Positions 9,217 to 63,113 of a stretch of 64,000 nucleotides of DNA are shown one piece after another. A model generated the notes under the pieces. That model was not told where the DNA came from and did no database searches. It was given only the letters and a program-made list of their open reading frames with translations. Numbering within the stretch: the stretch's first letter is position 1; every line of letters starts with the position of its first letter. Source of the DNA: a virus; IMG/VR virus record IMGVR_UViG_3300029922_000014, positions 64,001-128,000 of that record, one strand, 5' to 3'. Position numbers and translations under genes: made by a program.

Positions 9217-9264
9217 GTTATGCACCCCGGAAGAGGCATGCAAGCGGTTTTTCGCATGACGCGG
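9217..9264 (-). promoter_or_regulatory. Promoter TTGCAT-N15-CATAAC with Box B (9252-9264)
   Basis: ATG of the LuxR-type gene lies 7 nt downstream. Confidence 0.6.
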
Positions 9265-9294
9265 TAAACAGCGCAACACCCACAACATGCCAAC

Positions 9295-9307
9295 TGACAC
9301 GATGTCA
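9295..9307. promoter_or_regulatory. Box A palindrome
   Basis: Exact TGACACGATGTCA, intergenic. Confidence 0.85.
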
Positions 9308-15108: not shown

Positions 15109-15405
15109 TCAGTTGGCAAGCCGGATATGGGTGAACTCGCCGTTGGGTGCCAGCACCACCGGGTGGCAATACCGGCTGGAAGCGCCACTGAGCACCACGT
15201 ACAGGGTGCCATTGGCCAGCGCGGTGCAGAAGTTAACATCCTCGCGGATGAACGACCGTGCGCCGCGAACATCGTAGACGCCAGTGACTTTGTCTCCGAG
15301 CAGGCGAACGGCAGCGCGCAGCAGTCCAGGAATGGGGCGACCGGCAAAGACGAAGCTGTCGGTTTGCATGGCGGGCGGCGTCGGCTGTTTCTTGCTGCGG
15401 GGCAT
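15109..15405 (-). CDS. Hypothetical protein
   Basis: AGGAG SD; own promoter. Confidence 0.6.
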   Translation of the reverse strand: MPRSKKQPTPPAMQTDSFVFAGRPIPGLLRAAVRLLGDKVTGVYDVRGARSFIREDVNFCTALANGTLYVVLSGASSRYCHPVVLAPNGEFTHIRLAN

Positions 15406-15445
15406 GGCTGGCTCCTGATCCGTGGGATCGTCGGTTGTGCCGCTG

Positions 15446-15520
15446 ATGGTACCGACCTTGAATCCCTGTCAATGCGCAGTTTTCCGCGTCATGCACAAAT
15501 GGTCAATTGACATCGTGTCA
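15446..15520 (-). promoter_or_regulatory. Promoter TTGACA-N15-TACCAT with Box B (15484-15496) and Box A (15508-15520)
   Basis: Read directly from sequence. Confidence 0.75.
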
Positions 15521-31126: not shown

Positions 31127-31158
31127 CGACCAGTGAAAGAACTTCGCCCGCTGCATGT

Positions 31159-31361
31159 TGTTTCCCGCGTCATGCGACGACATGGACAGGATTCCTGCGC
31201 GTGGATGTACATAGCGCACTATGCGTTATTTCTCCCCTGGACAATATTCCTGTTTCCCGCGTCATGCGACGACATGGACAGGATTCCTGCGCGCGTGTTT
31301 TCATAGCGCATGACGCGACATTCTGCACCTGGATATAATTCCTATTTACCGCGCTATGCGG
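31159..31361. repeat. Non-coding 92-bp tandem repeat (about 2.2 units) carrying five Box B copies
   Basis: 43-bp exact repeat at 31159-31201 and 31251-31293; Box B at 31165, 31214, 31257, 31306, 31349. Confidence 0.85.
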
Positions 31362-33589: not shown

Positions 33590-33639
33590 AGCGTACCAGA
33601 TCGAATGGCGCGTCAACCAGTATTTTCCGCATCATGCCG
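33590..33639 (-). promoter_or_regulatory. Promoter TTGACG-N15-TACGCT with Box B (33627-33639)
   Basis: Read directly from sequence. Confidence 0.65.
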
Positions 33640-33693: not shown

Positions 33694-34887
33694 TCACGTA
33701 TTCACCGTGCAAATAGGTTCCTGCTTCACAGACGGTAGTTTCGTCCCGGTCTTACGACCAGGGCCAGAGCTTCCATCTCCACAGGCGTTTATTCCCGCGC
33801 AACTCGCGGTATGGATATTTTTTGCGGCATTCAGATCACGGTCGAGCGTGAAGCCACATGCAGTACAGGAAAAGACCCGCTCTGCGAGCGGAAGGGAATC
33901 TTTCTTGTGACCACAGCTTGAACAGGTCTTTGACGAAGGAAACCAGCGGTCGACGACAAACACCGATTGCGCTTTGTATTCCAGTTGACGTCGAATCTCA
34001 CTGAATCCCACGTCATTCAAGGCGCGTGAAAGATGGCGGTTTGCCATCATGCCTTTCACGTTGAGGTCTTCGAGACCGACAGAACCATACTGCTTGGCTA
34101 TCGCCGTAGTGGTCTTGTGCTGCCAGTCTTTTCTGATTTGAGCTATCCGCCAATGCTGACGACTGAGACGAGCAACGGCTTTCTTCCGGTTGCTGGATCC
34201 TTTGACTTTGCGAGAGACGAAACGAGAGAGACGCTTCAAACGTTCGAGAGCAGACTTGAGCGGTTTGGGAGACTGAAAGGTAGTGCCGTCGGAGAGAACC
34301 AGAGCAGTCTTCAATCCGAGGTCGATGCCGACAGCGGGCTTTGACACGATGTCAGTTGGCGGATCGGGAAGTTCGACTTGAACGGAAAGCCACCAGCGTT
34401 GACCGACAAAAGACAAAACAGCGGAGAGTGGTTTGCCGTCGAAGCGGAGTTCTTCGTGGGTATCAACCCAACCAATATTCGGTAGTTTAACAGCTTTACC
34501 GGCGAACGAAAATGTTCCAGGTCCGTTGTCGAGACGTGCTGATTGCTTGGATTTATGTTTGCTCTTGAAGTCGGGCGGGGACATCTTTGGTCCCTTGCGC
34601 TTGCCTGAGCAGGAGTCGAAAAAGTTTTGGTAGGCGGTGCCGAGGTTGATGATCGCCTGCTGAACAACGCGCTTTGGCACATCCAACATCCAAGGGAACT
34701 CTTCACGCTTGATCGTATTCAAACTCTTCCGCAACGATCCGTCGTTCGGCTTGTACCCAGCGGCAAACTGAGCACGCCAGTGACATAATGCCCAGTTAAA
34801 GGCAAAGCGCGCCGCTCCGACGCACTGCCGGAAGAATGCTTCCTGCTTTCGCGTGGGGGCAAGCTTGATGATGTGGGCGCGGATCAC
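33694..34887 (-). CDS. tnpB: RNA-guided nuclease TnpB (IS200/IS605/IS607 OrfB type), no adjacent TnpA
   Basis: N-terminal G.ARFAFNWAL HTH; RuvC GIDLG, LEDL, DRDLNAA; CSSCG/CTACG zinc finger; omegaRNA-type tail (AGINACGDGSSG...SVKQE). Confidence 0.92.
   Translation of the reverse strand: MIRAHIIKLAPTRKQEAFFRQCVGAARFAFNWALCHWRAQFAAGYKPNDGSLRKSLNTIKREEFPWMLDVPKRVVQQAIINLGTAYQNFFDSCSGKRKGPKMSPPDFKSKHKSKQSARLDNGPGTFSFAGKAVKLPNIGWVDTHEELRFDGKPLSAVLSFVGQRWWLSVQVELPDPPTDIVSKPAVGIDLGLKTALVLSDGTTFQSPKPLKSALERLKRLSRFVSRKVKGSSNRKKAVARLSRQHWRIAQIRKDWQHKTTTAIAKQYGSVGLEDLNVKGMMANRHLSRALNDVGFSEIRRQLEYKAQSVFVVDRWFPSSKTCSSCGHKKDSLPLAERVFSCTACGFTLDRDLNAAKNIHTASCAGINACGDGSSGPGRKTGTKLPSVKQEPICTVNT
34342..34354. 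promoter_or_regulatory. Box A palindrome inside tnpB
   Basis: Exact TGACACGATGTCA in the linker before RuvC-I. Confidence 0.75.
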
Positions 34888-34894
34888 TGCACAC

Positions 34895-34922
34895 ACAATA
34901 ACAAAAAACACAGGCGTGGCCA
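34895..34922 (-). promoter_or_regulatory. Putative leaderless tnpB promoter TGGCCA-N16-TATTGT
   Basis: GTG start 7 nt after the -10, as in the other leaderless genes. Confidence 0.5.
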
Positions 34923-36999: not shown

Positions 37000-37527
37000 T
37001 TAGTGGTGGGAGTTGGCAACGCCGAGCGCGGCCTTCGCCATCACAGACGACAGGTAGTCGATCTCGCCTTGGGAGAGCTTGCCGAGACCGTAGCCGTAGG
37101 AGGAGAGCATGGCGGCGATACGGGCTTTCGCTTCAGCCGGCGCGTCCTCGTATTGCAGCGGGTTGTCCTTGGCGCCGATGCTCGCGAGCTTCAGGCCCAA
37201 TGCCCGGAGGTAGGTCACCGCCTTTTCCTCGCCGTAGGCGTGAATGTAGGTCTTGTCCTTGGTCACGTCGTCTTCGGTGAGGATCGCACGCACCGGCGTG
37301 TCGCTCCAGTCGATATCGATCACGCGCTTGCGCCAGCCGAGTTCGATCAAGCCCCACGGGGTCTTCACGAGCCACCAGGGGCTGCGGTGCCGGTAGACGG
37401 CTTCCTTGAGGATGTCGGCGTCGGATTCACCGTCGCGGGTCGTGATGTAGCCGTTGGGCAACCGCCAATGCTTGGTCACGGGGATACCGGCGAGGGTGAA
37501 GATGCCGAGGAGGGTGAGTTCGTTCAT
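37000..37527 (-). CDS. Conserved hypothetical phage protein
   Basis: PW.LV.TP.G.I..GWRKRVI.IDWS.T......DDVTK....IHA. Confidence 0.65.
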   Translation of the reverse strand: MNELTLLGIFTLAGIPVTKHWRLPNGYITTRDGESDADILKEAVYRHRSPWWLVKTPWGLIELGWRKRVIDIDWSDTPVRAILTEDDVTKDKTYIHAYGEEKAVTYLRALGLKLASIGAKDNPLQYEDAPAEAKARIAAMLSSYGYGLGKLSQGEIDYLSSVMAKAALGVANSHH

Positions 37528-37535
37528 GTGCTTTT

Positions 37536-37622
37536 CTAGGGCTGGTGCATGGCGCGGCGGGCGATGGCGAGGCTGCGCAGGCAGATGGCGTCGGTGATCT
37601 GAGCGTTCATGGCGATGGTCAT
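37536..37622 (-). CDS. 28-aa peptide (MTIAMNAQITDAICLRSLAIARRAMHQP)
   Basis: Directly behind a full cassette with AAGGAG SD; not in the ORF track. Confidence 0.5.
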   Translation of the reverse strand: MTIAMNAQITDAICLRSLAIARRAMHQP

Positions 37623-37628
37623 GGGAGA

Positions 37629-37720
37629 CTCCTTGGTCCTTTGGACCGCTGGTTGGTTGTTGTACCCGCATCATGGTGCGGACTGACATCGTGTCAATTG
37701 CTGTTTTCCGCGTTATGCGG
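37629..37720 (-). promoter_or_regulatory. Expression cassette 1: Box B (37708-20), Box A/-35 (37684-96), -10 CATGAT, Box C, SD
   Basis: All elements read directly. Confidence 0.8.
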
Positions 37721-38040
37721 AACTTCCGCTGGGATGACCGGAACGTTCGCCAGGATTTCGGCCTTGCGCAGCACAATGGCTTCCGCTTCCTGTTCGATGG
37801 TGTCGGTGATCAGCTTGGCGAGGTCCTGGAGGGTGTTGACCTTGACCGTGCGACGGTCGAGCGCCTTGATCAGCTTGGACACGACGGTTTCGCGCAGAAG
37901 CAAGCCACGATGCCCGGCACGCAGGGCGGGTTCGGTGGCGGCTTTGGCGCTGGTATATAATCACCGCCGGTGGGCTTGATCGCGTGCAGGGCGTTGCGGA
38001 ACTTGTCCTGGACGGTGATCGGAGTCTTGTGCATGGCCAT
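37694..38040 (-). pseudogene. Hypothetical gene split by a 2-nt (TA) slip
   Basis: Removing 2 nt from TATATA at 37954-37959 joins ORFs 37870..38040 and 37694..37903 into one 114-aa ORF with uniform GC3. Confidence 0.5.
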
Positions 38041-38046
38041 TGGATG

Positions 38047-38132
38047 CTCCTGGTCCATTGGACCGTTGGCGTTATGGCTGCATCCTGACATGGATTGACA
38101 CGATGTCAATCGAGACTTTCCGCGTAACGCGC
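38047..38132 (-). promoter_or_regulatory. Expression cassette 2: Box B (38120-32), Box A (38096-108), -10 CAGGAT, Box C, SD
   Basis: All elements read directly. Confidence 0.8.
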
Positions 38133-38189
38133 GTTTTCCGTGCCTTGAGCACCTTGGCGTACGCAGGACAGAGGTCGGATACAATCGAG

Positions 38190-38373
38190 CCTGGAAACGC
38201 CTTACAGGTGCCAGTAAACGGCAAACCCGACCCCAACAAGGGATCGGGTCTGGCGTGTTCGCCCGCGGTGCACTTTCACAGGGGAGGGGGGAACTCCAGC
38301 CGAAAAGATCAACGCGCTGCCCAAAGGAAGGAGTGCACGGGGGGACGTGCGGGCAGTGGCAGAACGGTAAGCG
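38190..38373 (-). ncRNA. Candidate structured non-coding RNA (~180 nt)
   Basis: Nested helices 38198-205/38367-73, 38209-13/38357-61, 38261-66/38349-54, 38268-74/38332-38, plus a hairpin at ~38223-38251; promoter TTGACA-N16-CAAGAT at 38377-38404. Confidence 0.5.
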
Positions 38374-38407
38374 CGCATCTTGCGCACTACGCAGAGTCTG
38401 TCAACGG

Positions 38408-39157
38408 TCAGGTGTGGCCGGGCGGATTGATCGGATCAAGTGGTATGGGGAGCTTCGGAGGGCGCAGGATTATACTCCCGTAGTTCGGTCCTGGACCGTT
38501 ACCAGTCTGCAAAAGGATCGTCGATGCGGCCATGTGCCGACCGTTGCCGCTGTGGTCGGTGAGGTCGCGGGCGGTGGGTAGTGGCCAATAGGCGTATGGA
38601 CTGCCAATGATGGGCGGGTTCGAGTTGGCTTCCGCAACCAATTGGGTCGGGGTCATGGCGACCTGCCAAATCTTGACCGATTCGAGACTACCGACGAACT
38701 GCGCATGTGCGGTCGACGAGAACAACACGATGCGATCGAACGGGAAGCGGTTGCGGACATCCAGAAGCTGCAAGCTCAATTGCCCGTCGAAGTAGTAACT
38801 GCTGAGGGAACCATCGGAGATGAACCCCCAGTGATGCCAGCGTGTGTCGAGGCTTGGCCACTGCCCCGTAGTCTGGATGCGGTCACCGACAAAGAGTTCA
38901 GGAGTCAGGCCGGATTCATCGGATCCCAGGTACAGTGACTCGGGGCCGCCTTCCGTGCAAATGGCGATGGCGGCGGCGCGCGCGTTGGTGGGCTTCTCCC
39001 AACGCACCCACATGGACACTGTCAGAGGTCCGGTCCCTGGCCCTGCCTGCGGTGACGCGAAAACGCCGCCATAAGGCCATTCCAGGTGGCACTCCCGGAA
39101 GATCGCGTTGCCGATCCCCGGGCCGTAACCGATGACTGCGATGGTCGTGACGCTCAC
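38408..39157 (-). CDS. LamG/concanavalin-like jelly-roll protein (probable virion or adhesion protein)
   Basis: LTVSMWVR, WHHWGF..DG.....YFDG, F.GSL..VKIW..A.T, YWPL, D.SGNGRH. Confidence 0.75.
   Translation of the reverse strand: MSVTTIAVIGYGPGIGNAIFRECHLEWPYGGVFASPQAGPGTGPLTVSMWVRWEKPTNARAAAIAICTEGGPESLYLGSDESGLTPELFVGDRIQTTGQWPSLDTRWHHWGFISDGSLSSYYFDGQLSLQLLDVRNRFPFDRIVLFSSTAHAQFVGSLESVKIWQVAMTPTQLVAEANSNPPIIGSPYAYWPLPTARDLTDHSGNGRHMAASTILLQTGNGPGPNYGSIILRPPKLPIPLDPINPPGHT
38421..38458. repeat. 38-bp exact direct repeat, copy 2
   Basis: In the 3' end of the LamG gene; identical to 34939-34976. Confidence 0.9.
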
Positions 39158-42100
39158 TTCTTGCCCATGGTCCCAAGCGACGTCTTCATGCCGGTATGGT
39201 GTTCGATGGTGCGGTGCAGGTCGTCGGCGTAGACGCCGTCCGCGGAATGCTTCACGGTGTACTTGCCGCCGCTGATCTTGCCAAAGTCCACCTTGTAGGT
39301 GTCGTCGGGCTTGAGGTGCACCTTGATGTGGTTGACGTTCTTGGCGTTCTTGCCGATCTTGAACTGGTAGGATGGCATGCCGGTGCCGGGAACGTGGGTC
39401 TCCTTGCCGTCCTCACCTTTGGTAGTGTAGCCCTGCCCGTGGTCGACCATCATGTTCTTGGCGCCGAGCATGAAGTGCGCCTTGGCACCGATCTGCTTGT
39501 GGATCGCGTGCGCCTTCTCCAGGCCTTCCTTGGCGGCCTTCTCGTTGATGGCTTCGGTAAGGGATTCTTCCTTCTTGCCGAAACCGGGGGCGGCGCGGAC
39601 GCCGTGCTTCTCGCGAACCTTGGCTCGGGCTTCCGGGTCCTGCTTGTGGCCCATGTGCCCCTTGTCGGGCGTGCTGCCGCCCCACTTGCCGCTGTTGATG
39701 TTCTTGAGGATGTCGGAGTACTTGATCTCCATCTTCCCCGGCTTGTGGCCATCCTTGATCGCGTAGGTAGAGACGACGAGCGTCGCGCGGTCCTTATCCA
39801 GGTCGCGGGACTTGATCGTCCACCAGACGTTCTTGATGACTACGGACTTGTTCGGAACGAAGTACTTCCGCAGGTCCTTGTCGTTGAGTTTGCCTTCGGT
39901 CAGCGATTCGTTGTGCAGGTGGATGTGGACGTGCTTGGCCTTGTCCTCGGGGCCTTCGTCTTCGTCGTCGTCGTCTTCATCACCCTTGCTGTTGGCACCG
40001 CCTTCCTCTTCTTCTTCGTCCTCTTCGTCGGGAACGTCGTCGGTACCGGTAGCGCCGGGAGCCGGCGGCGGGACAACGGTCGGGTTGGGCAGTTCGTTGG
40101 CGCCCTGCGCACCAGCACGGGTCATCATCTGTTCGCCCATCTTCGGGACGGAGATGTAGCCGGTGGGGCTGGCCTTCCATTCGTTGGGCTTGAGCCCAAA
40201 GCGCTCTTCGATGCGGACTTCCATCGCGTCGATGTCGCAGTCGGCGCACAGGAGCATATCGTAGTAGGTCTGAACGTCGGCCACGGTGAAGTTCTTGGGA
40301 TCGACACCCTCCGCCAGGATCTTGGCCTTCGCGTCGTCGAGCCGCGTCTTGGCTTCCGTGGTCAGGTTCTTGGACAGCCCAACATACAGCTTCAGCCGCG
40401 CGGCGGCGGTCTTGGCGTTGGGTGACGATTCCAGGAGCCCCTTGGCGATCGACGCGGCAGAGCCCTCAAAGAAGTTCTCCGGCGGGGTCCAAGATTCGCC
40501 CAGTTGGACGAAGTTCTTGCCCTTCATCGCCTGCATCGCGTTGCCCTTGGTCGTGGCGCGCACGCAGGAGACAACCAATTGCCCGTCGGCGTCCATGGTC
40601 TGCTGCATCAGCGATTCGGCTTGATCCATGGTCAGAGCGTTGTTGTTCACCAATTCCCAGCCGTCCTTGGTCTTCTGGCAGATCCAGTAGTCGCAGGAGG
40701 CTTTGCCAGCGGCTTCGGTAGTGGCCTTCTTCGCGAAGCCATGCTCATCGTGGTGGACCTTGTCGAACGTCTTGGCCCGGAGCTTCCCCATGGCTTCGCT
40801 GTGATCCTTGGCCTTGATGTATGCGGCGAAGTGCGGCTTACCGTGAGGGTAGGTCTTCTCGTTGTTTGGACCGGTGTGCGGCGTCAGCGCGTTGTCGATC
40901 GTGCGCTCCAATTCGCCCTTGGTCTTCTTGCCCTGGCCCAGAATGGGCTCATGCATCGTGGTGCCCTTGGCGCCCCGACCGATCACAGGGTAGTGCATGG
41001 TTTCGTCGATTGACGCGATGTCAGTGGCCTCAGTGATGCTCTTCACATGGACGCGGGAATCGTTGTGGACCGGATCATGCGACTGCACCGACGTCGCAAA
41101 CATCTCGGCGTGTTTCTTCGCACCGAACTTGAAGGCGTGATGCTGTTCCTTCGTGTCGCCGCGCGTGCTGGTTCCAACATGCTCACCGGACCGATGACCC
41201 ATGGCACCGGCGGCCTTCTTCAAATGATCGACCGTGAACGGCTTGCCCGACGAATGCTTGGCACTGTGGGCCACCAGCACGTAGTGAGCTTCGTCGATGC
41301 CTTCGTTGCGGCGCTTGAGCATGTTGCGGGCGGTGCCGCGCTTGCGCTTGCCGAGCATGCCGTACTTGGACGGGAAGCTGGCACGGACGGGAGCGAAGGA
41401 GGCAGAGGCGAATCCGCCTACGGTGCCGGAGCGGGTCATCTCGTCGATGTAGTCGAGGAATGATCCGGGAAGCTCCACCTCTGCGCCCTCAGCATTGAGG
41501 AAGATCAGGTCACCGTTGACGTCTTCCGACATGGAACAGGTGTCGCCGGCCGGGGAGATGACGGTCACACCTTCGGTGCCGATGACAAGCTTCCAGGTCT
41601 GGTCTGATTCGACGGATTCCTTGACGGAAAAGTCGCCCATCAGAAAGTTCATGATGTCGACGTGGGCGGCGGTCGAATCGCCATTGTGCTTGGTCAGGAT
41701 CTTGTCGATCCCACTACGGTAGAGAACCATGTCGCCTTCGTCGACGTAGCGGAACACATTCTCGTCATCGCGGATGGTCACGGAGACGACGCCGGGTTCG
41801 ATCTCGACTACTTCCCAGGCCGGCTGCTCCAGCGATTCGCGGACCTTGGTCGCGGCGTCAGCGGGCTGTTCGTCGGCGTTGGGGTCCTTGATCTTCTTCG
41901 GCGGGACGGGCTGCTTGCCGAGCGGGGTACATTCGATGATCGACACATCGGAGACGCGGTCGTTGGCGATGTCGGTGGTGCCGGCGGTCAGGGACAGCTT
42001 GTATTTGAGGAACTGTGCTTCCCCCAGCTTGCCGGTGTCGTCGCGGGTCAGGGCGCCCTCGAAGATGGCGGTGAAGCTCTTGGGGCCGACTACGGTCTCG

Positions 42101-42372
42101 ACGAGCTTCGCGTAGAGCGAGGCGGATTCCTGCATCAGCCAGGACTCGAACTGCAACGCGCACAAGCCGACGTCGGTCGCGGTGAAGATCGGATCGCGGG
42201 CGAGGAACTGCGCGGCGAAGGTCTTCGGATCGTCCTGCACGCCGGCCCACTCCAGGACCTTGTTGATGACGGCGCGCGGATGGGCGATGGTGTCGCCGGT
42301 CTCGATCAGGTCGAGTTCAGCGCGGAGCGCGGCGATGTCTTCGGTCTTCGGTTGGATCGTGAGCTTCTTCAT
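39154..42372 (-). CDS. Large (~1070 aa) putative internal-head/virion polyprotein
   Basis: Strong codon bias; many hydrophobic-x-E|(A/S/G) motifs between His/Lys-rich modules; acidic linker; degenerate Box A at 41011-41023. Confidence 0.6.
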   Translation of the reverse strand: MKKLTIQPKTEDIAALRAELDLIETGDTIAHPRAVINKVLEWAGVQDDPKTFAAQFLARDPIFTATDVGLCALQFESWLMQESASLYAKLVETVVGPKSFTAIFEGALTRDDTGKLGEAQFLKYKLSLTAGTTDIANDRVSDVSIIECTPLGKQPVPPKKIKDPNADEQPADAATKVRESLEQPAWEVVEIEPGVVSVTIRDDENVFRYVDEGDMVLYRSGIDKILTKHNGDSTAAHVDIMNFLMGDFSVKESVESDQTWKLVIGTEGVTVISPAGDTCSMSEDVNGDLIFLNAEGAEVELPGSFLDYIDEMTRSGTVGGFASASFAPVRASFPSKYGMLGKRKRGTARNMLKRRNEGIDEAHYVLVAHSAKHSSGKPFTVDHLKKAAGAMGHRSGEHVGTSTRGDTKEQHHAFKFGAKKHAEMFATSVQSHDPVHNDSRVHVKSITEATDIASIDETMHYPVIGRGAKGTTMHEPILGQGKKTKGELERTIDNALTPHTGPNNEKTYPHGKPHFAAYIKAKDHSEAMGKLRAKTFDKVHHDEHGFAKKATTEAAGKASCDYWICQKTKDGWELVNNNALTMDQAESLMQQTMDADGQLVVSCVRATTKGNAMQAMKGKNFVQLGESWTPPENFFEGSAASIAKGLLESSPNAKTAAARLKLYVGLSKNLTTEAKTRLDDAKAKILAEGVDPKNFTVADVQTYYDMLLCADCDIDAMEVRIEERFGLKPNEWKASPTGYISVPKMGEQMMTRAGAQGANELPNPTVVPPPAPGATGTDDVPDEEDEEEEEGGANSKGDEDDDDEDEGPEDKAKHVHIHLHNESLTEGKLNDKDLRKYFVPNKSVVIKNVWWTIKSRDLDKDRATLVVSTYAIKDGHKPGKMEIKYSDILKNINSGKWGGSTPDKGHMGHKQDPEARAKVREKHGVRAAPGFGKKEESLTEAINEKAAKEGLEKAHAIHKQIGAKAHFMLGAKNMMVDHGQGYTTKGEDGKETHVPGTGMPSYQFKIGKNAKNVNHIKVHLKPDDTYKVDFGKISGGKYTVKHSADGVYADDLHRTIEHHTGMKTSLGTMGKK

Positions 42373-42439
42373 GCCCCGAAACGTAGTGGAGGCGTACGAG
42401 CGGGGAAGGCAGAAACAACGAACCTCGGGAACCTCAGGA

Positions 42440-42976
42440 TCAGATATGTGCCCAGCGCCTGGGAGCGCCACCGCGAAAAGGAGCAATAGCACGAATCGCC
42501 CGCGGTGAAACTCCGTATTTCGACGCTACTGCAATTACGGCGCCGTCTCGCCATGTGCGGTGTTTCAATATATCACGAATTGCCAGAACATCTGCTTCAC
42601 TAAGCCGGGCTGCGCCATGTTTTTCCCCATGTGCGTGACGACGCTGTGCCACAGTATCTGCAATATTATCAATTTGTGTCCCAAGCACGAGATGCTGCGG
42701 ATTCACACAAGCGGGGTGGTTGCAACGATGCCTAACAACTGCGCCATCCGGAATATCCCCATAGGCCATTTGCCAAGCCCACCGATGCGCTTTGACCGGC
42801 CACGATGAAATAATTCGAGACGAAACAGGACGAAACTCGCCATACCCATTCGGATTCTTAGCGCCCGTCCAGAGCCAGCAGGTATCGGTTTTTTGCACCT
42901 TCGCGTAAAATCGCTTCCGCGCGGTCAAATAACCTGCATCTGTACGTTGCTGTACCGTCAAACGCTTCCGCACCAT
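42440..42976 (-). CDS. HNH homing endonuclease
   Basis: CWLWTGA....GYG.F...AHR.AW...VRHRCNHPACVNPQHL..GT..DN. Confidence 0.9.
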   Translation of the reverse strand: MVRKRLTVQQRTDAGYLTARKRFYAKVQKTDTCWLWTGAKNPNGYGEFRPVSSRIISSWPVKAHRWAWQMAYGDIPDGAVVRHRCNHPACVNPQHLVLGTQIDNIADTVAQRRHAHGEKHGAARLSEADVLAIRDILKHRTWRDGAVIAVASKYGVSPRAIRAIAPFRGGAPRRWAHI

Positions 42977-42984
42977 ATTCAACC

Positions 42985-43950
42985 CTAACCCTCCATGAGA
43001 CAGGTGTCAGCGAAGTCCACAGCGAGTTTGACAACATCGGCTTCACGTGCAATCACACGCTGCCATTCCAGCGGCAGCGCCTCTGCACCATGGATCCATC
43101 CGGACAGCGCGCCGGTAATCGCCGCCGTCGTATCAGTGTCAGACCCTAAGTTCACTGCGGCCAGGACGCTATGCGCAAATGCTTCGGTACCAACCAGACC
43201 CAAGGTCTCTGTCTGGTGCAAGCACCACACTGCGGATTCCAGCGAATGGATGCAGTACCCTCCGCTCTGAATGTCCCTGCGCGCGGCAGCGAAAATCGAA
43301 CCATCCTCAAGGCGAGCAAACTCGCGCTTATCCTCGGTCCCGAGCAACATGCCGCCGACAGCCATGGCCAACGCTTCGCGAATGCTGCGCCCGTTAGCCA
43401 GCGGCGAGAGCATGCGCGCATGCGTAACACACGTATAGGTCGAACGGTCGTGGGCGTGCGTCAGGGCGGACCCCTCGCGGGCAAAACGTTCGATATGGTG
43501 CGGATTGCTGAAAAGGGCATACACGTTCAAGGGCATGCAACGCATCAAGCTGCCATTGCCGTTGCTGCTCAGACTGGTGCCGCCGCACTGACTGGCAGGA
43601 AAACCGGCTTTGCGCTTGGCAATCGCTGCGCGCGTCGCATTTCCACAGTCGAAGTTCACACCGTGGGCGGTCCAAGTCGCATGGTCATACCAGGAAACAA
43701 ACGAATCCATGACGGCTTCGAGGTCCCAGCCCTTGCGGACCAGAACGTCAGCGGCGGCCAGGGTCATGGAGGAGTCGTCAGACCACGTCCCAACCGGTTG
43801 ATTCCAGGTGCCGTGTCCACGCATCTCTTTAATCGGATCCGCATCGCGTGCTTCACGGGTGCTGAACTCTGCATAAACCCCAAGAGCGTCGGAAATGCAG
43901 GTGCCGATGATCGAACCGATGATGCGCGAGCGAAGGGTGGGGGTCGACAT
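42985..43950 (-). CDS. ADP-ribosylglycohydrolase (DraG/ARH family)
   Basis: DALG..EF, GTWSDDSSM, GNGSLMR, LTHAH, AVNLG.DTDTTAAITGAL. Confidence 0.92.
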   Translation of the reverse strand: MSTPTLRSRIIGSIIGTCISDALGVYAEFSTREARDADPIKEMRGHGTWNQPVGTWSDDSSMTLAAADVLVRKGWDLEAVMDSFVSWYDHATWTAHGVNFDCGNATRAAIAKRKAGFPASQCGGTSLSSNGNGSLMRCMPLNVYALFSNPHHIERFAREGSALTHAHDRSTYTCVTHARMLSPLANGRSIREALAMAVGGMLLGTEDKREFARLEDGSIFAAARRDIQSGGYCIHSLESAVWCLHQTETLGLVGTEAFAHSVLAAVNLGSDTDTTAAITGALSGWIHGAEALPLEWQRVIAREADVVKLAVDFADTCLMEG

Positions 43951-43956
43951 GGCAGG

Positions 43957-44040
43957 CTCCAGGTCCGGGGGACCGTTGGGGTATGGCTGCATCATGGCGG
44001 GATTGACACGATGTCAATCGCTGTTTTCCGCGTCATGCGG
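43957..44040 (-). promoter_or_regulatory. Expression cassette 3: Box B (44028-40), Box A (44004-16), -10 CATGAT, Box C, SD
   Basis: All elements read directly. Confidence 0.8.
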
Positions 44041-44051
44041 AAAGCACCGCA

Positions 44052-44543
44052 TCAGCGACGGGGGACGCCCGGTCCTTGGATCCTGGCGCTCTGGGCCATG
44101 TGCTGCTTGAACTGTTCCGACAGCACATCGGCAAACTGGCGATTGCCGTCGTTCTGGGCGGTCTGGCAGCAGGGTCCGTAGTAGGCGATGGCCTCGTCGA
44201 GGTTGTTCGCGCCGATCAGCGGGAAGTCCAGCATGGCGTTGGTCTTGCGCACGCGGCCGAGCGGATCCTTGGCCGTCAATTCCATCTGCTGGCGCCCGAT
44301 GAAGGGGTGGAACTCCAGCGGGAAGATGCCGGTGATCACACGGCGATGGATGATGCGCGCCACGGGGCCATAGCCGTAGACGTGCTCCTCGTACGTGAAG
44401 GCCTGCGCGAGCCCCGCCAGAGCCTCCAAAGACAGCCCGGTGCCTTCGGGAGGGGCCGCCGCTTCCGGTGCCGTCTGAGAGGCTTCCTGTGGCTGCACGG
44501 GAGCTTCCGGGGCGGTGGTATCGGCGGCGTTCTCGGTGTTCAT
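44052..44543 (-). CDS. Hypothetical protein
   Basis: ATGA-coupled. Confidence 0.55.
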   Translation of the reverse strand: MNTENAADTTAPEAPVQPQEASQTAPEAAAPPEGTGLSLEALAGLAQAFTYEEHVYGYGPVARIIHRRVITGIFPLEFHPFIGRQQMELTAKDPLGRVRKTNAMLDFPLIGANNLDEAIAYYGPCCQTAQNDGNRQFADVLSEQFKQHMAQSARIQGPGVPRR

Positions 44544-44839
44544 GGGGATGCCTTGACTGATGGCTTGTGGTTGATGCGCGGACGGCGCACGGGGGTCTGA
44601 CGGAGGTTGCGGGATTCGTTGTACTGCCGGATCAGGTCGACGTAGACATCGACGTTCTCTGCCAGCGTGATGATCGCTTTGCGGATGGCCTTCTCGGACA
44701 TCGTCTTCGGCATGGTGACGGCGACCTTGATTGGGCAATTCTCGAAGCTCAGGAAGTCGACAGTGAACGTCGCACCGTCGTCATCACGGACGATGACGCC
44801 TGCATCATTTTCCTCTTCAGTCAAGATGGTCTTGTTCAC
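44540..44839 (-). CDS. Hypothetical protein
   Basis: ORF in operon. Confidence 0.55.
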   Translation of the reverse strand: MNKTILTEEENDAGVIVRDDDGATFTVDFLSFENCPIKVAVTMPKTMSEKAIRKAIITLAENVDVYVDLIRQYNESRNLRQTPVRRPRINHKPSVKASP

Positions 44840-44860
44840 GGGTTCAGATTGTAGTAAATG

Positions 44861-45430
44861 TCAATAGTGTTTCAATAGATTGTTTCGCGCGCAATTGCCT
44901 GCAAATAGTTTGAGGAGGCTTTCGACATCTTTCACCATGTCCATTTCACGTAGCGGATTGAAATGAATGGCGTGGCCGCCGTTCTGGATGAACTCGCGCA
45001 CGTTGGTGCGATTGTCGTCGATCAGAATCGTATTCGACTGGGCCAGGAAACGGCGATGGCTGGTGATGTAGTACGGCGCCCCGGCGGCATTCTTCTTGAA
45101 CCACAGCATCATTCCGCGCGGCGCCCACAGGTAATCACGCGGGTCGGTGACAAAGCGCAATTCGCCATAACGGACAACGGCACGAAACAGTTCTCCGTAG
45201 TGGGCGAATGGCTTCATCTCAGACCAGAACGTGATGCCTTTGGCGTCGATGATCTCAACCAATTGAGGGTAGGTCATGCCGAATGAGTTCTGCACATTCT
45301 GACGGTCGAGGTCGGGGTGCGCGTACAGTTCTTCACGCCCAACCAATCGCAGACATTCTCGCATCCACGGTGCGCAGACATCATGCACGTCCAGGTAGAT
45401 CACCGGCGGAGGTGGATCATGAAGCGGCAT
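44861..45430 (-). CDS. HAD-family 5'(3')-deoxyribonucleotidase-like protein
   Basis: IYLDVHDV, FW..MKP, ILIDDN..NV.EF...GG.AI.F. Confidence 0.75.
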   Translation of the reverse strand: MPLHDPPPPVIYLDVHDVCAPWMRECLRLVGREELYAHPDLDRQNVQNSFGMTYPQLVEIIDAKGITFWSEMKPFAHYGELFRAVVRYGELRFVTDPRDYLWAPRGMMLWFKKNAAGAPYYITSHRRFLAQSNTILIDDNRTNVREFIQNGGHAIHFNPLREMDMVKDVESLLKLFAGNCARNNLLKHY

Positions 45431-45622
45431 CGGTGTCCTTAACGGCGAGCGCCACAACGCGCCCGTAGGGGGAGCGGCCAAAACGTCGAGAGACGATCTT
45501 GAACGGGGTGCGCCAGAGGAACCATGCCAGGATCCGTAGTGGGCGGGGGTACATGTCGACGGCGCGGGCAACACCAACCACCTTGAATCCAGGCGGGGCT
45601 TTTGGTGCTCCAATGCGCGGTT

Positions 45623-45856
45623 TCACAGTGCCCTCAACTGGTCCAGGCGGAAGAAGTCCGTCTTCCAGGCCGGGGCATTCGTTTGCGGGTCCATGTACGG
45701 GATCTTGAGATACACCGCATGCGCCTTGTCGCTGTCGTAGGTGAAGCTCATGATCGTGCCCAACATACGGAAGCTCAGACTCTTTTCGTCGAGCACACGC
45801 ATGCGCATGCCAACACGGAGATTCGCGCGGTCGGGAATGTCCAGGGTGACGTTCAT
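45623..45856 (-). CDS. Hypothetical protein
   Basis: ATGA-coupled. Confidence 0.45.
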   Translation of the reverse strand: MNVTLDIPDRANLRVGMRMRVLDEKSLSFRMLGTIMSFTYDSDKAHAVYLKIPYMDPQTNAPAWKTDFFRLDQLRAL

Positions 45857-46122
45857 AGGGATCGAATCTCGCCTTCGCCAGTGGACAGGTATGCTTTTGC
45901 GCGTTCCGCTTCAACGGACATTCGGTGCAGGTATGCCCGTCCGTCCTCCATGCAATAGACCGTAGTGGTGATGCGCCGCCCGGCGCCGGCATCAACGACC
46001 AGTCGCCGTTCCTGCGGAAGACAGTTGCACACCGCACACAGTTTCTTTTGTGCCGGTGTGACATTTTCGACTTCGATGGAGATTGACCGAAACCATAGCC
46101 CCGGCTTGCGGCGGGAGGTCAT
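45853..46122 (-). CDS. Hypothetical protein
   Basis: Coupled to neighbours. Confidence 0.45.
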   Translation of the reverse strand: MTSRRKPGLWFRSISIEVENVTPAQKKLCAVCNCLPQERRLVVDAGAGRRITTTVYCMEDGRAYLHRMSVEAERAKAYLSTGEGEIRSL

Positions 46123-46484
46123 CAGTTATCGAACCATATGACAACCAGAGGATCGCGCGTGAGCTTGCGCGCATCGGCCAGAACCTGAACGAACGACACC
46201 TCGTCATCGGATGGATCCGGGGGATCGAAGTGATGAGGCTCTGCCTGCCTGACCGTGGCCTCAAGCTCATCAGGCGTCAGCGCCTGGATTCCAAAAAAAT
46301 CGTACTCCATAAAATCTGCAAGCCCATCGACGTAGTGCCAGTGGTCACGCTCTGCATTGAGAAGGGCAGGAAAAATATTGACGTACCGTGGCAAATGGTA
46401 GTCGGAATGCGCCGACGGCCATATGCGAGGATACTTCCCGTACTCATCTTTCTGGATGAGTTTGATGTTGATGTCAGTGCCCAT
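46122..46484 (-). CDS. Hypothetical protein
   Basis: MGTDI start and V.WFDN end, typical of a common phage family. Confidence 0.6.
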   Translation of the reverse strand: MGTDINIKLIQKDEYGKYPRIWPSAHSDYHLPRYVNIFPALLNAERDHWHYVDGLADFMEYDFFGIQALTPDELEATVRQAEPHHFDPPDPSDDEVSFVQVLADARKLTRDPLVVIWFDN

Positions 46485-46487
46485 GGC

Positions 46488-46937
46488 TCAGGAGACCGTA
46501 GTGATGCCGACGCGGGTTTCCGGCTTCTCGGATGCAGCCTGGATACCTTCGACGTAAGCGGCCTCATCGAACGGGACGCCCTGCACGGTGGCGAGTTGCT
46601 GGGCGGTCGTAGTGGCGACTTCCTTCCACTTCGGACGGCGGCCAGTGGTTTCCTCGACGAAGGGGGCGAAGCGGCCGGGCTCGAAGGACAGGCCCTGGTC
46701 GGTGGCGGCCTTGATCTGGATCTGGATGTGCTTGAAGGCCTTCTCGGCTTCGCCGCGTAGCGCATTCAGCAGGTACGCGGCTTCGAGCGAATCCTGACTG
46801 GTGACATCGCCAGGAGCGGCGTTGCCGAGCGCTTCCAGGACGTTGACGAGATTGGAAACGCTGGCCTCGACGCGCCGGGCCAGGGTCGGCTTCTTGGGTT
46901 TGACTGCGGGAACGGTGGCGAGCTTGCGGACGGCCAT
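46488..46937 (-). CDS. Hypothetical protein
   Basis: AGGA SD, high GC3. Confidence 0.6.
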   Translation of the reverse strand: MAVRKLATVPAVKPKKPTLARRVEASVSNLVNVLEALGNAAPGDVTSQDSLEAAYLLNALRGEAEKAFKHIQIQIKAATDQGLSFEPGRFAPFVEETTGRRPKWKEVATTTAQQLATVQGVPFDEAAYVEGIQAASEKPETRVGITTVS

Positions 46938-46970
46938 GGCGTATTCCTGGTAATGTGGTGCAACACTGAA

Positions 46971-46997
46971 GCCCATCCGCCATGACAGCGGATGGGC
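46971..46997 (-). terminator. Strong hairpin, possible terminator or stability element
   Basis: GCCCATCCGC-N7-GCGGATGGGC with a weak U-tract. Confidence 0.5.
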
Positions 46998-47015
46998 CAG
47001 GAACAGAGCGGATGA

Positions 47016-47444
47016 TCAGACCTTGAACTTTTCCAAGAGCAGGTTGAAGGCGAAGGCATAGGCCTTGGCCTTGGTTTCCTTGGTCGGGACCAAGCCCTTG
47101 ATGGCCTTGTACTGGGCGTGGCCTTCGGGGCAGGTCACCTTGAGAAGATCCGCGATGTTGTGGGCAAAGAAGTCGACCGCCTTGGCCACCTTCTCCGGAG
47201 TGGCACCTTCGGGCATGACGGTGGGATATTTCTCCCCGTCGGTGGTCTGGGCAGCCGGGACGGTCGCCTTGGCAGCGGTTTTGGCCTTGGCGTCCGCGAT
47301 GGCGTTGACGGTCGGCATGAAGATGACCTGTTCATCGGCGGTCATGGGCGCGAAGCCCTTTTCCTGGAGTTTCGCGTTGATTTCCGCGAGGGGCTTGGCC
47401 ATCTCGACGAGGAGGGTGATGATGTCGGTACGGGTGGCTTTCAT
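47016..47444 (-). CDS. Hypothetical early protein
   Basis: Behind cassette 4; strong codon bias. Confidence 0.7.
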   Translation of the reverse strand: MKATRTDIITLLVEMAKPLAEINAKLQEKGFAPMTADEQVIFMPTVNAIADAKAKTAAKATVPAAQTTDGEKYPTVMPEGATPEKVAKAVDFFAHNIADLLKVTCPEGHAQYKAIKGLVPTKETKAKAYAFAFNLLLEKFKV

Positions 47445-47450
47445 GGGAGG

Positions 47451-47536
47451 CTCCTTGGTCCATTGGACCGTTGGTGTGATGAGCGAAGCATATGCGGACT
47501 GACATCGTGTCAATGCCTCTTTTCCGCATAGCGCGT
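47451..47536 (-). promoter_or_regulatory. Expression cassette 4: Box B (47524-36), Box A (47500-12), -10 TATGCT, Box C, SD
   Basis: Its 64-bp core is near-identical to 48940-49003. Confidence 0.85.
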
Positions 47537-47546
47537 AAAATGCTCT

Positions 47547-47774
47547 TTAAGCAATGCGGTCCTGGTCCAGCAGAGCAAAAACCACCGGTTCTTGGGTGGT
47601 CGGGCAGACAGAATAGAAATTGAAGACACTGGGGCGGGTAAAACGCCGAGCGAGAAGACCGTGCCGCAAACTGCAACGGGGGCAGGATTCGACGACGATA
47701 TTTACCGCAGTAAGAGGAATGCGAATAACAAACTCTTTCTTAGGTTCAGCCGCTGGTTTGGTTGCGGATCCCAT
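47547..47774 (-). CDS. Small zinc-ribbon hypothetical protein
   Basis: CPRC..H...CPTT.EP. Confidence 0.45.
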   Translation of the reverse strand: MGSATKPAAEPKKEFVIRIPLTAVNIVVESCPRCSLRHGLLARRFTRPSVFNFYSVCPTTQEPVVFALLDQDRIA

Positions 47775-48106
47775 CCATCCTTGCAGGCTTCTGCAACGGT
47801 GACGGCAAACAGGACAACATCCGAATCTTCAAAGACGCGGTTGTCGATGCTCCGAGACAGGATTTTGTAGTCGAGCATCAGACTTCCGCGCGATCAGTGC
47901 TTTTTTGCGCGCTCACGCGGATCGGTGGCCTTGACCGATTCGTCGGCGTGGCCGTCGGTGGTCTTCGGACGGATCACGGGGGCGTTGGTGGCAGCATCAT
48001 GGCCGCCGACGGAGTCCAGGTCTTCGACGATGGGTCCGCGGGCGGGCGGTGGGATCTGGCGCTTCTCGTTCATGGGTTCTCCGGGCGACAGTATCCGCGC
48101 CATGCG

Positions 48107-48397
48107 TCAGTGTGCAACGTAGTCGTTGCCGAATAGCTCGTCGAGCAGCGAACGGTCACCGGTACAGGACCATTCCCGGCACTGATGCGGGGCGGTGCTG
48201 TAACACCACACGAAGCCTTCCCGGCCATCGTCGTGCTGGAACCCCCAGGACGCGCCGACCTTGTCAGCATCGTCCAGGGCAGTCGCATTCGGCATGCCGA
48301 GGATGGTGATCAGCGTGCGAAAGTCGGCGGTGATGGTACCGGTGCGGGATGCGCCGGTCTTCGGGATGGGGTTGATCATGGCGGCAATCGCGCTCAC
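48107..48397 (-). CDS. Hypothetical protein
   Basis: Coupled to the upstream gene. Confidence 0.55.
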   Translation of the reverse strand: MSAIAAMINPIPKTGASRTGTITADFRTLITILGMPNATALDDADKVGASWGFQHDDGREGFVWCYSTAPHQCREWSCTGDRSLLDELFGNDYVAH

Positions 48398-48933
48398 AGC
48401 AGCACCGGTTCCAGGCCAAAATCCGCGTCATCAGAAGGGGACGCGTCCAGCACGATCTTCCGCTTGCGGCGGTTCTTCCTGCCCTTGTCCGCGCGCGGGG
48501 TCTGTTCGTGATCGAACCAGGAACCGTACAGCCCGGAACCGGGGTGCAGAGCCTGCTGCAAGGCGTTTCCGAGCCCCCAAACCTTGTGGAGGAGGTCCAG
48601 GTACCCTTTGCGCTCCGGAATGTCCTTGGCGCGTTCTTTGGCGGCGTCCTTGAAGTTGGAATAGTCGATGGCCTCCGCGAGGTGCGACATGACCAGCATC
48701 AGTTCGACCTTGGTGACGAAGATGCGGAAGGCGTAATCGCGGCCGGGGATCTCGTGGATCTCGCGACCATCGAGCAAAGGGACAACGCGGATGAGCGTGA
48801 CCATGCTTTCGAGGGTGCGCGCACGGATGACGCGTTCGTCGGGAGACGCCCGGGTGAAGGACACCTTGCCGCGGGTGATGGTCTCTTTCTCAGCGACGAC
48901 TGAGAACATCCCGAAAGTCGTTAGAACCCACAT
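48394..48933 (-). CDS. Conserved hypothetical phage protein (MWxxTxxGxFSVV family)
   Basis: MWVLTTFGMFSVV...IRAR...DYAFR...IDYSNFK. Confidence 0.7.
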   Translation of the reverse strand: MWVLTTFGMFSVVAEKETITRGKVSFTRASPDERVIRARTLESMVTLIRVVPLLDGREIHEIPGRDYAFRIFVTKVELMLVMSHLAEAIDYSNFKDAAKERAKDIPERKGYLDLLHKVWGLGNALQQALHPGSGLYGSWFDHEQTPRADKGRKNRRKRKIVLDASPSDDADFGLEPVLL

Positions 48934-48939
48934 TTTTGA

Positions 48940-49023
48940 CTCCTTGGTCCTTTGGACCGTTGGTGTGATGAGCAAAGCGTATACAGACTGACACGATGTC
49001 AATCAAGTTTCTGCATAGCGCGG
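48940..49023 (-). promoter_or_regulatory. Expression cassette 5: Box B (49011-23), Box A (48989-49001), -10 TACGCT, Box C, SD
   Basis: All elements read directly. Confidence 0.85.
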
Positions 49024-49578
49024 CAAATGCCGATAAGTTTGACCGCGACGGATGTATTCGATCACATCGCGTGACACTCCGTACGTTTGGGCTAACGCTG
49101 TGATCGAATCAGCAGAAGCAATGATCTCCGCAGCCTGCGCATTGGTCAGGAGCGCTTTGCAATGCTCCTCGCCCCAGGGCATGCGCCCGTTGCGTATAGC
49201 ATCAGCAGCATTGGCCGCCTGTGTGTCGTATCGCAAATTGTCTAGACGGTTGTCAAATGGGTTGTCGTTCGCGTGGCACATGACCGCCCTGGAAGGGCGC
49301 GGGCCGACAAACGCCCGTAGAACAATCAGCCCAACCGGCCTGACGAGTCTATTTGCGCGCCCGTTACGCAAATTGCAAATCGGAATCGCGCGACGCCTGT
49401 ACCCAACCCGTGCAACAGTCAATTTCAGTTCAGCCGGCTCCTGATCCAGTTCGATCGTCGAAGTCCTGAACCCCTGGTGCTTGAACGAAAACACACGCCC
49501 GTGATCAGTAACGTAATAACCGTCCCAGCCCACAACCGGAAGCTGGTGCTCACCATCTCGAAGATGAGCAATCCACAT
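49003..49578 (-). CDS. NUMOD4/HNH homing endonuclease
   Basis: PVVGWDG.Y.VTDHGRV.S, AFVGPRP....CH.ND...DNRLDNLRYDT..AN. Confidence 0.85.
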   Translation of the reverse strand: MWIAHLRDGEHQLPVVGWDGYYVTDHGRVFSFKHQGFRTSTIELDQEPAELKLTVARVGYRRRAIPICNLRNGRANRLVRPVGLIVLRAFVGPRPSRAVMCHANDNPFDNRLDNLRYDTQAANAADAIRNGRMPWGEEHCKALLTNAQAAEIIASADSITALAQTYGVSRDVIEYIRRGQTYRHLPRYAET

Positions 49579-49584
49579 ATAAGA

Positions 49585-49669
49585 CTCCTGGTCCAGGGGA
49601 CCGCTGGTGATGGGGGGTCATCATGCACGGACTGACACGATGTCAATCGCTGTTTTCCGCGTCACGCGG
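49585..49669 (-). promoter_or_regulatory. Expression cassette 6: Box B (49657-69), Box A (49633-45), -10 CATGAT, Box C, SD
   Basis: All elements read directly. Confidence 0.8.
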
Positions 49670-63063: not shown

Positions 63064-63113
63064 ATGATAGTTGAACTGACACGGTGTCAATCATTGTTTT
63101 CCGCGTAGTGCGG
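63064..63113 (-). promoter_or_regulatory. Promoter TTGACA-N15-TATCAT with Box A (63077-89, CGG core) and Box B (63101-13)
   Basis: Read directly from sequence. Confidence 0.75.

Follow-up and report, generated by a model that had tools for sequence, protein, structure and literature searches.

Three-palindrome promoter and leader cassettes in a phage of a large uncultured clade

The stretch of phage DNA analyzed here, referred to as the window, is 64,000 nt long and comprises bases 64001-128000 of a single virus contig of 150,436 bp (IMG/VR record IMGVR_UViG_3300029922_000014); genome positions are those of the whole contig. Its minus strand carries repeated units, termed cassettes, in which three different palindromes (Boxes A, B, and C) are combined with a promoter, a short leader, a Shine-Dalgarno (SD) sequence, and a start codon. 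We interpret these units, with a probability of about 0.6, as stereotyped promoter-plus-leader cassettes of three separable parts, serving genes that would be read by the host RNA polymerase, probably early. The anatomy of the cassettes, their copy numbers and spacings, the separability of the boxes, the conservation of Boxes A and B in relatives, and the restriction of Box C to this lineage were observed directly in the sequences. An earlier reading of the window, made from its letters alone (the sequence-only reading), had described six such cassettes; its observation was confirmed and its interpretation is partly supported by what follows.

Cassette anatomy and copy number

Read along the minus strand, a cassette consists of Box B, a run of A, the hexamer TTGACA, 15-16 nt, a -10 box of the form TAnnnT or CAnnnT, the motif CCA(A/G)C, Box C, GGAG, and ATG (Table 1). 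Exact pattern matching on this strand recovered all six of the cassettes first described, each with every listed part present. Box A (TGACA-N3-TGTCA) and Box C (GGTCC-N3-GGACC) were exact in all six, and Box B departed from CCGCR-N3-YGCGG by no more than one mismatch. The count of six was real but too low, as the family also includes four further full cassettes and one variant. The -35 box TTGACA does lie within an arm of Box A in all six, followed by a 15- or 16-nt spacer and a -10, as had been proposed. The variant and all ten full cassettes have a sigma-70-like promoter, with a perfect TTGACA and a TAnnnT or CAnnnT. The spacer between -35 and -10 measured 15 nt in eight of the ten full cassettes and 16 nt in the other two, never 17 nt, and the distance from the 3' end of Box B to TTGACA was 8-11 nt, mostly 10, across the ten copies. 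If transcription starts about 7 nt past the -10, the predicted leader would be 28-51 nt long, typically 34-36 nt; it would open with about 10 C/A-rich nucleotides that end in CCA(A/G)C, followed by Box C, (A)GGAG, 6-7 nt, and ATG. Each cassette holds three palindromes, with T3 and A3-4 flanking Box B, and the predicted hairpin energies range from -6 to -10 kcal/mol.

All three boxes were far more frequent than expected from second-order Markov simulations over the whole 150-kb contig. Fifty-one exact copies of Box A were observed (0.07 expected), 23 of them in the window. Box C was observed 11 times (0.4 expected), with 10 unique copies and one duplicated in the terminal overlap of the contig, and strict copies of Box B were also observed 11 times (0.6 expected). 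When the ten cassettes were aligned, overall identity was 56-82% with the boxes exact. Boxes that stay exact in cassettes diverged to this degree have been kept by selection and not by recency alone.

The cassettes are modular: each box is also found without the others. The modularity claimed by the sequence-only reading was borne out by Box A, which stands alone at about 35 places, either between genes or within them, and by Box B, which also accompanies ordinary -35 boxes. The promoter at 63077-63113, which has no Box C, indicates that Boxes B and A can occur together without it, and the Box B at 9252-9264, next to a non-palindromic -35, indicates that Box B occurs without Box A. The accessory genes behind the cassettes are unrelated to one another: one unit encodes a helicase and a Dam methylase, another the ADP-ribosylglycohydrolase and an HNH endonuclease, and others a lone HNH or small ORFans. 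The ADP-ribosylglycohydrolase, the HNH, and the 28-aa open reading frame (ORF) named earlier were all confirmed as cargo, and a second HNH gene was added to the list (that of cassette 3).

Table 1. Positions of the cassettes and related promoters (window positions unless marked as genome positions; (-), minus strand; spacers in nt)
Feature	Span	Box B	Box A or -35	Spacer	-10	Box C or hairpin	SD	ATG	Cargo and remarks
Cassette 1	37620..37720 (-)	37708-37720	Box A 37684-37696; TTGACA 37692-37697	16	CATGAT 37670-37675	37635-37647	GGAG 37629-37632	37620-37622	28-aa ORF (37536-37622), then 175-aa ORF (37000-37527)
Cassette 2	38038..38132 (-)	38120-38132 (1 mismatch)	Box A 38096-38108	16	CAGGAT 38082-38087	38052-38064	38047-38051	38038-38040	Small ORF, ~56 aa
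Cassette 3	43948..44040 (-)	44028-44040	Box A 44004-44016	15	CATGAT 43991-43996	43962-43974	43957-43961	43948-43950	ADP-ribosylglycohydrolase (42985-43950), directly followed by HNH_3 endonuclease gene (42440-42982)
Cassette 4	47442..47536 (-)	47524-47536	Box A 47500-47512	15	TATGCT 47487-47492	47457-47469	47451-47456	47442-47444	142-aa ORF (47016-47444); terminator-like hairpin with T-run just upstream, 47580-47601
Cassette 5	48931..49023 (-)	49011-49023	Box A 48989-49001	15	TACGCT 48976-48981	48946-48958	48940-48945	48931-48933	179-aa ORF (48394-48933)
Cassette 6	49576..49669 (-)	49657-49669 (overlaps stop codon of upstream gene)	Box A 49633-49645	15	CATGAT 49620-49625	49590-49602	49585-49589	49576-49578	Free-standing HNH gene (49003-49578)
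Full cassette	genome 3042-3112
Full cassette	genome 5281-5376
Full cassette	genome 8073-8150
Full cassette	genome 150350-150428								Repeated at genome 41-119 (terminal overlap)
Variant cassette	15403..15496 (-)	15484-15496	TTGACA 15467-15472, non-palindromic	15	TACCAT	GATCC-CAC-GGATC 15417-15429	AGGAG	15403-15405
Box B + Box A promoter	63077..63113 (-)	63101-63113	Box A 63077-63089			none			301-aa ORF (62143-63048); short leader
Box A promoter, then Box B promoter	9252..9307 (-)	9252-9264	Box A 9295-9307; TTGCAT after Box B	15	CATAAC

The palindrome at the -35 box

Only about 13 of the 51 copies of Box A have promoter geometry; the rest, lacking it, lie at gene junctions or inside genes. 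In the junction type, the TGA stop of the upstream gene and the ATG or GTG start of the downstream gene are often written within the palindrome itself. The central triplet of the cassette copies occurs in either direction equally often, as expected if a symmetric dimer binds the DNA there. The phage encodes a ParB-type protein of 396 aa (genome 128145-129335) with matches to ParB_N (E = 1.3e-14) and HTH_ParB (E = 5.7e-07); its closest solved relatives are ParB, Noc, and Spo0J, and it is of the chromosomal type. The parB gene lies behind a Box B + Box A promoter of its own, and a distant relative of the phage (contig G001, described below) keeps both the protein and the palindrome. The ParB-type protein is the most likely candidate binder of Box A. 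Other candidate regulators are two XRE helix-turn-helix proteins (11005-11625 and 15957-16565) and a small protein whose helix-turn-helix is of the Sigma70_r4 type. This small protein is driven by the tandem promoter at 9252-9307; its Sigma70_r4-type match lies at ~9060-9188, and its N-terminus was read as GerE/LuxR-like. A phage-encoded sigma factor was considered and rejected, as no match to Sigma70_r2 was found.

The nearest regulatory analogy for Boxes A and B would appear to be the KorB operator network. In the KorB/KorA/KorC network of the IncP-1 plasmid RK2, KorB is a global repressor of the ParB family with palindromic OB operators both at promoters and away from them. Like RK2, the phage encodes its own ParB-family protein, repeats one palindrome many times, over -35 boxes and far from promoters, and places further distinct palindromes in the same promoter regions. 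It differs in being a lytic-type phage with no ParA partner noted, and in that Box C is probably an RNA element.

Two features of the junction copies were also noted. At 825, 11560, and 36038, for example, TGA forms the first three bases of Box A and the next protein begins Met-Ser-. An SD-like GGA stands just ahead of the junction Box A, an arrangement conserved in relatives (G001 positions 13062, 60370, 63708, and 87259).

The palindrome upstream of the promoter

The three boxes had been thought to share one 13-bp geometry of two 5-bp arms around 3 nt. This holds for Boxes A and C, but Box B is a 19-bp palindrome, TTTCCGC-N5-GCGGAAA, with invariant CCGC and GCGG arms and inner five bases that are only partly symmetric. 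The A-run that had been taken for a separate tract after Box B mirrors the preceding T-run and is part of the palindrome. Box B is also found ahead of non-palindromic -35 boxes, at 5118, 9264, 15496, and 33639 in the window and at genome position 139808; in these promoters with an ordinary -35, its distance to the -35 is the same and the spacer is always the same 15 nt. Five or six Box B-like palindromes also occur in a non-coding tandem array at 31100-31361 (minus strand; 92-nt period, 2.2 copies). The phasing of two helical turns to the -35, the tandem array, and the symmetric A/T flanks point to Box B as a protein-binding DNA site.

The array could be a regulatory hub or an origin of replication. 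It sits in a non-coding region of about 350 nt that follows a junction Box A (31427), with a CAGGAAT..TGTCC motif interleaved. Among the Box B promoters, those at 5106-5118 and 33627-33639 have a -10 only 7-13 nt from the ATG and no SD; their messages are possibly leaderless. The second of these, with TTGACG as its -35, lies directly downstream of the tnpB gene. A Box B with a degenerate Box A after it lies in plus-strand orientation at 2508-2550; the pair may act as an antisense or divergent promoter, although the genome is otherwise read in a single direction.

The phage, its relatives, and the age of the boxes

The contig has 59.6% G+C and a 127-bp terminal overlap; it is classed by IMG/VR as having direct terminal repeats and was rated 100% complete by CheckV. 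Of the 194 genes predicted by a simple gene caller based on codon usage, 181 lie on the minus strand. Recognized genes encode a T4-type portal with an intein, a Rad50/Mre11-like pair, TnpB, the ADP-ribosylglycohydrolase, and an HNH protein, as well as a large terminase, several helicases, and a family A DNA polymerase with a uracil-DNA glycosylase domain as its fusion partner. No Rfam family was matched at its gathering score anywhere in the window, nor were tRNAs found there. The best identities to cultured phages were at most ~32% for the terminase and at most 27% for the Rad50-like protein. Hundreds of terminase homologs were found in metagenomes, many on contigs of 145-157 kb, and with the cultured homologs so distant, the phage can be placed in a large uncultured clade.

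Searches of cultured phages with the region and one cassette (megablast and blastn) and motif scans of IMG/VR and metagenome contigs found no close relatives. The real kin that the motif scans returned were G001, a 95-kb IMG/VR contig, and fragments from the same sample; most of the metagenome matches were unrelated, at ~45% GC. G001 is syntenic with the phage from the terminase through the replication genes, with 35-50% protein identity. It carries 12 copies of Box A, in both promoter and junction settings, with CAA/TTG at the center as compared to CGA/TCG here, and about ten Box B-type sites, several of them 9-12 nt ahead of a -35. The G001 homolog of the cassette 5 gene has a Box B + Box A promoter in the same place, without Box C, and the homolog of the cassette 4 gene has a terminator and a Box B unit in the same place. 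Leaders in G001 are longer (54-126 nt) and folded, and contain no Box C. Within a sample of 80 terminase-anchored loci from the clade, several have the same type of palindrome, including the variants TGACG-N3-CGTCA and TAAAC-N3-GTTTA, again at promoters and at junctions. Box C was not found in 0.51 Mb of relatives, either by pattern search or with a covariance model of the leader. From these comparisons, Boxes A and B appear to be old in the clade and Box C new in this lineage. In place of the 15-nt spacer seen here, G001 has one of 16 nt, and further members of the clade (L021, L031, L032, and L033) have one of 17 nt; the 15-nt spacer is a lineage-specific shift of promoter geometry.

Cassettes and possible gene exchange

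The sequence-only reading had likened the cassettes to PeSLs, the promoter/stem-loop units known from the T4-type phages RB49/phi1, PST, and nt-1 (Arbiol et al. 2010, PMC2839356; Comeau et al. 2014, PMC4122927), and the likeness is apt. By definition, a PeSL has a sigma-70-like early promoter preceded by AT-rich sequence, together with a stem-loop that may lie before, across, or after the promoter; the unit reaches from the stop codon of the preceding gene to the SD and ATG of the following one (PMC2839356). The anatomy of the cassettes matches this published definition: they are compact intergenic units that span the same interval, with a sigma-70-like promoter, an A/T-rich upstream element, and palindromes able to form stem-loops. 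As with PeSLs, they are repeated in direct orientation and precede non-essential or ORFan genes, and the portal of the phage is of T4 type. They differ from PeSLs, which have one variable GC stem-loop, in having three distinct palindromes of conserved sequence. No evident terminator exists among these palindromes, as judged by the lack of a U-run after Box B or C in the sequence. Unlike in PeSLs, the palindrome at the -35 is shared with about 35 non-promoter sites, the spacer is uniformly short at 15 bp, the upstream palindrome is kept across distant relatives, and the hairpin is locked to the ribosome site. PeSLs are small composite units found at the ends of indels between near-identical phages, and mini-circles have been shown for them (PMC2839356, PMC4122927). 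By this comparison, the cassettes are elaborate relatives of PeSLs and not a new kind of system.

A possible alternative, though clearly a less probable one than a role in expression, is that the main selected role of the cassettes is the one they would share with mobile PeSLs, i.e., to provide portable homology for swapping accessory genes, possibly via mini-circles. It partly overlaps the preferred interpretation and, beyond the shared architecture, draws on the region downstream of the portal gene. Gene order in the clade is terminase, portal, a gene of ~170 aa, a conserved gene of 288 aa, a promoter, and the cassette 5 gene. The 288-aa gene was found in 23 related loci (e.g., L014:18254-19120, in G001), and no homolog was detected in this genome by tblastn or profile HMM (hidden Markov model). 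Its slot (49003-49669) is filled by cassette 6 and an HNH gene of poor codon score, a unit that begins on the upstream stop codon and stops 5 nt short of Box B in cassette 5, and that replaces the clade-conserved gene exactly between the stop codon and the ancestral promoter. Elsewhere, the cassettes at genome positions 84 and 3077 share an 83-nt direct repeat (genome 70-152 and 3063-3145), 89% identical, that brackets a 2,993-bp block encoding the helicase and a Dam-type methylase; the repeat includes 44 identical nucleotides upstream of Box B, with a small hairpin. Orthologs of the genes around this block could not be detected in G001, so there is no basis for calling it an insertion. The cassettes form two clusters, in regions whose gene content departs from that of G001, and two of the four HNH_3 genes in the genome lie inside cassette units.

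Similarity between cassettes is also mosaic, with the nearest neighbor changing by segment: through Boxes B and A, an identical run of 32 nt is common to cassettes 3 and 6; between Box A and Box C, cassettes 4 and 5 agree at 88%; and between Box C and the ATG, cassettes 1 and 4 agree at 91%. The likeness of cassettes 3 and 6 does not come from duplicated cargo, an explanation we rejected because their HNH proteins are not paralogs. At genome 5281-5340, an extra inverted copy, GGACC-AAC-GGTCC, stands 11 nt upstream of Box C, with the leader and 5' arm partly duplicated; this cassette (genome 5340) looks like a duplication or recombination scar. Taken together, these observations are suggestive of cassette-mediated gene shuffling. 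Against shuffling as the main role, the relatives are too distant for breakpoints to be mapped inside a cassette, the HNH proteins behind cassettes 3 and 6 are not related, and function alone explains the conserved blocks. Some of the cargo, moreover, is conserved backbone: the genes of cassettes 4 and 5 and that at genome 4814-5269 have homologs in G001 with promoters at the same places, and these promoters are ancestral. The 288-aa gene itself had no Pfam match; its cysteine-rich C-terminus recalls head-morphogenesis proteins.

The palindrome ahead of the ribosome-binding site

Under the preferred interpretation, in which the cassettes serve expression, Box C is most likely an RNA hairpin in the 5' untranslated region, acting at the level of RNA or translation. 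Four lines of evidence argue for this. First, Box C lies at a fixed distance of 11-12 nt from the ATG and at a varying distance downstream of Box A (22-46 nt). Second, all minimum-energy folds of the predicted leaders contain the hairpin. Third, the variant cassette has GATCC-CAC-GGATC in its place, with a compensatory change from G-C to A-T on both arms of the stem. Fourth, unrelated GC hairpins occupy the same position abutting the SD ahead of two other promoter-proximal genes, the parB gene (GCCGG-AACA-CCGGC) and the gene at 6304; by our count, hairpins abut the SD in ~13 of ~20 promoter-proximal genes as compared to ~5 of ~160 other called genes. Genome-wide, Box C is confined to cassette leaders and never occurs away from a ribosome site.

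The sequence-only reading had proposed control by three inputs, with an RNA hairpin that gates the SD as an alternative for Box C. The evidence places Box C at the level of RNA or translation and not among the DNA operators, but the gating does not stand: the SD is unpaired or barely paired in the folds, which rule out sequestration. Rho-independent termination was also rejected for Boxes B and C, as neither has a U-run; AAAA follows Box B and (A)AGGAG follows Box C. A terminator scan of the coding strand reported neither box, and no U-run follows Box A either; the only separate terminator-like hairpins precede cassette 4 and the repeat at genome 120-152. The idea that Box C, as two GGWCC sites, reflects restriction was discarded, as GGWCC is only mildly rare (336 observed, 490 expected).

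The start-associated sequences (SAS and ESAS) of cluster K mycobacteriophages offer a comparison; the SAS is an asymmetric 13-mer that includes the ribosome-binding site. Like these, Box C is a short conserved motif directly upstream of the ribosome site and start codon, at a fixed distance and in a subset of genes. Unlike SAS, it is a palindrome or hairpin lying 5' of a standard GGAG, and it is found only on promoter-proximal genes.

An unlikely alternative is that Box C is a third DNA operator, where a repressor would form a roadblock from about +11 to +23, giving three-protein control at the DNA level like that of KorA, KorB, and KorC. Invariant arms around a free central triplet are typical of sites for dimeric DNA-binding proteins, 6 of 10 copies start at +11 or +12 of the predicted transcript, and several helix-turn-helix proteins of the phage have no assigned site. 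Against an operator are the placing of Box C, which is fixed relative to the SD and ATG and not to the promoter, the compensatory variant, the hairpins of other sequence that abut the SD in other leaders, and the confinement of Box C to ribosome sites.

A proposed mode of action

The expression cassette that we favor would work as follows. Box B, with its center near -50 and two helical turns from the -35, is most likely the site of a dimeric DNA-binding factor, which would tune promoters whose 15-bp spacer is under the optimum. Box A provides the perfect TTGACA, and a ParB-type protein bound there would occlude the -35 and shut the promoters down. Box C, a hairpin of 5 bp with a 3-nt loop near +11, abuts a GGAG that it leaves uncovered, and it probably acts on the message; it may keep the SD exposed and insulated from upstream RNA, protect the mRNA, or serve as a handle for a regulator. 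Finally, as a unit of about 100 nt repeated in direct orientation beside accessory and HNH genes, the cassette would offer homology for recombination; as with PeSLs, the cassettes are likely, but unproven, to be a by-way for gene gain and loss. In this scheme, we infer the transcription starts, their timing, all of the binders, and the recombination.

Several points weigh against the scheme. Canonical sigma-70 is poorly served by a spacer of 15 nt, where relatives have 16-17 nt; the -10 may therefore have been misassigned, or the polymerase or sigma factor may be a different one. Box B could be partly an UP-like A-tract. The stem of Box C is identical in 10 of 11 copies, with a varying loop and a single compensatory variant, and an invariant stem with a free loop is also expected of a sequence-specific binder of DNA (as a dimer) or of double-stranded RNA. 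A 10-nt single-stranded 5' tail argues against classic 5'-end protection. The evidence for recombination uses relatives ~45% identical in protein, too distant for placing breakpoints, and short, functionally constrained segments can mimic mosaicism.

A more ambitious version of the scheme, which we regard as doubtful and slightly less likely even than a DNA operator at Box C, is a three-layer switch combined with a portable gene-capture unit. A ParB clamp would silence the -35 palindrome, a clade-conserved dimer would activate through the 19-bp palindrome and so make up for the short 15-bp spacer, a lineage-specific factor would read the hairpin, and homologous exchange of cassettes would move HNH and accessory genes, displacing even the conserved gene next to the portal.

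Two further explanations are very improbable. Early promoters of phage N4 have a 5-bp stem and a 3-nt loop, and the 5-3-5 hairpins recall them as possible promoters that extrude from the DNA and are read by an RNA polymerase of the phage itself; the large proteins scanned, including those of 2450 and 1151 aa, showed no RNA polymerase domain, however, the perfect TTGACA and TAnnnT at fixed spacing already account for the promoters, and the junction and intragenic copies of Box A lack promoter geometry. A search for a T7-type polymerase gave no PF00940 match, but gave none in the control genomes either. That the cassettes are simply recent duplicates with ordinary promoter function, their boxes reflecting inherited similarity, would explain the long identical runs between some pairs but not boxes that stay exact at the overall identity observed, the retention of Boxes A and B in phages 35-50% identical in protein, or the occurrence of each box alone elsewhere.

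For a large clade of ~150-kb phages with no cultured relative, the cassettes supply a parts list for gene control. A -35 box embedded in a genome-wide ParB-type palindrome suggests a direct link from a chromosome-wide clamp to the shut-off of early promoters, and the retention of Box B at 35-50% protein identity points to a conserved transcription factor or host factor. The hairpin locked to the SD appears to have swept through one lineage only. If the recombination role is true, gene shuffling by cassettes would extend beyond the T4 relatives of enterobacteria, vibrios, and cyanobacteria.

Other features of the genome

The TnpB protein (IS605 OrfB / Cas12f-like) is encoded on the coding strand at 33694-34911, with a copy of Box A within its gene (34342-34354). 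The 2450-aa protein (L099:4666-12018; genome 48666-56018) has a central NUDIX fold as its sole recognizable domain. An HNH_3 gene at genome 40535-40672 lies on the plus strand, where very few credible genes are found. The portal gene (50177-53248) carries an intein with an Intein_splicing domain, whereas the portal of G001 is 619 aa long without an intein; inteins also occur in many of the terminase homologs of the clade.

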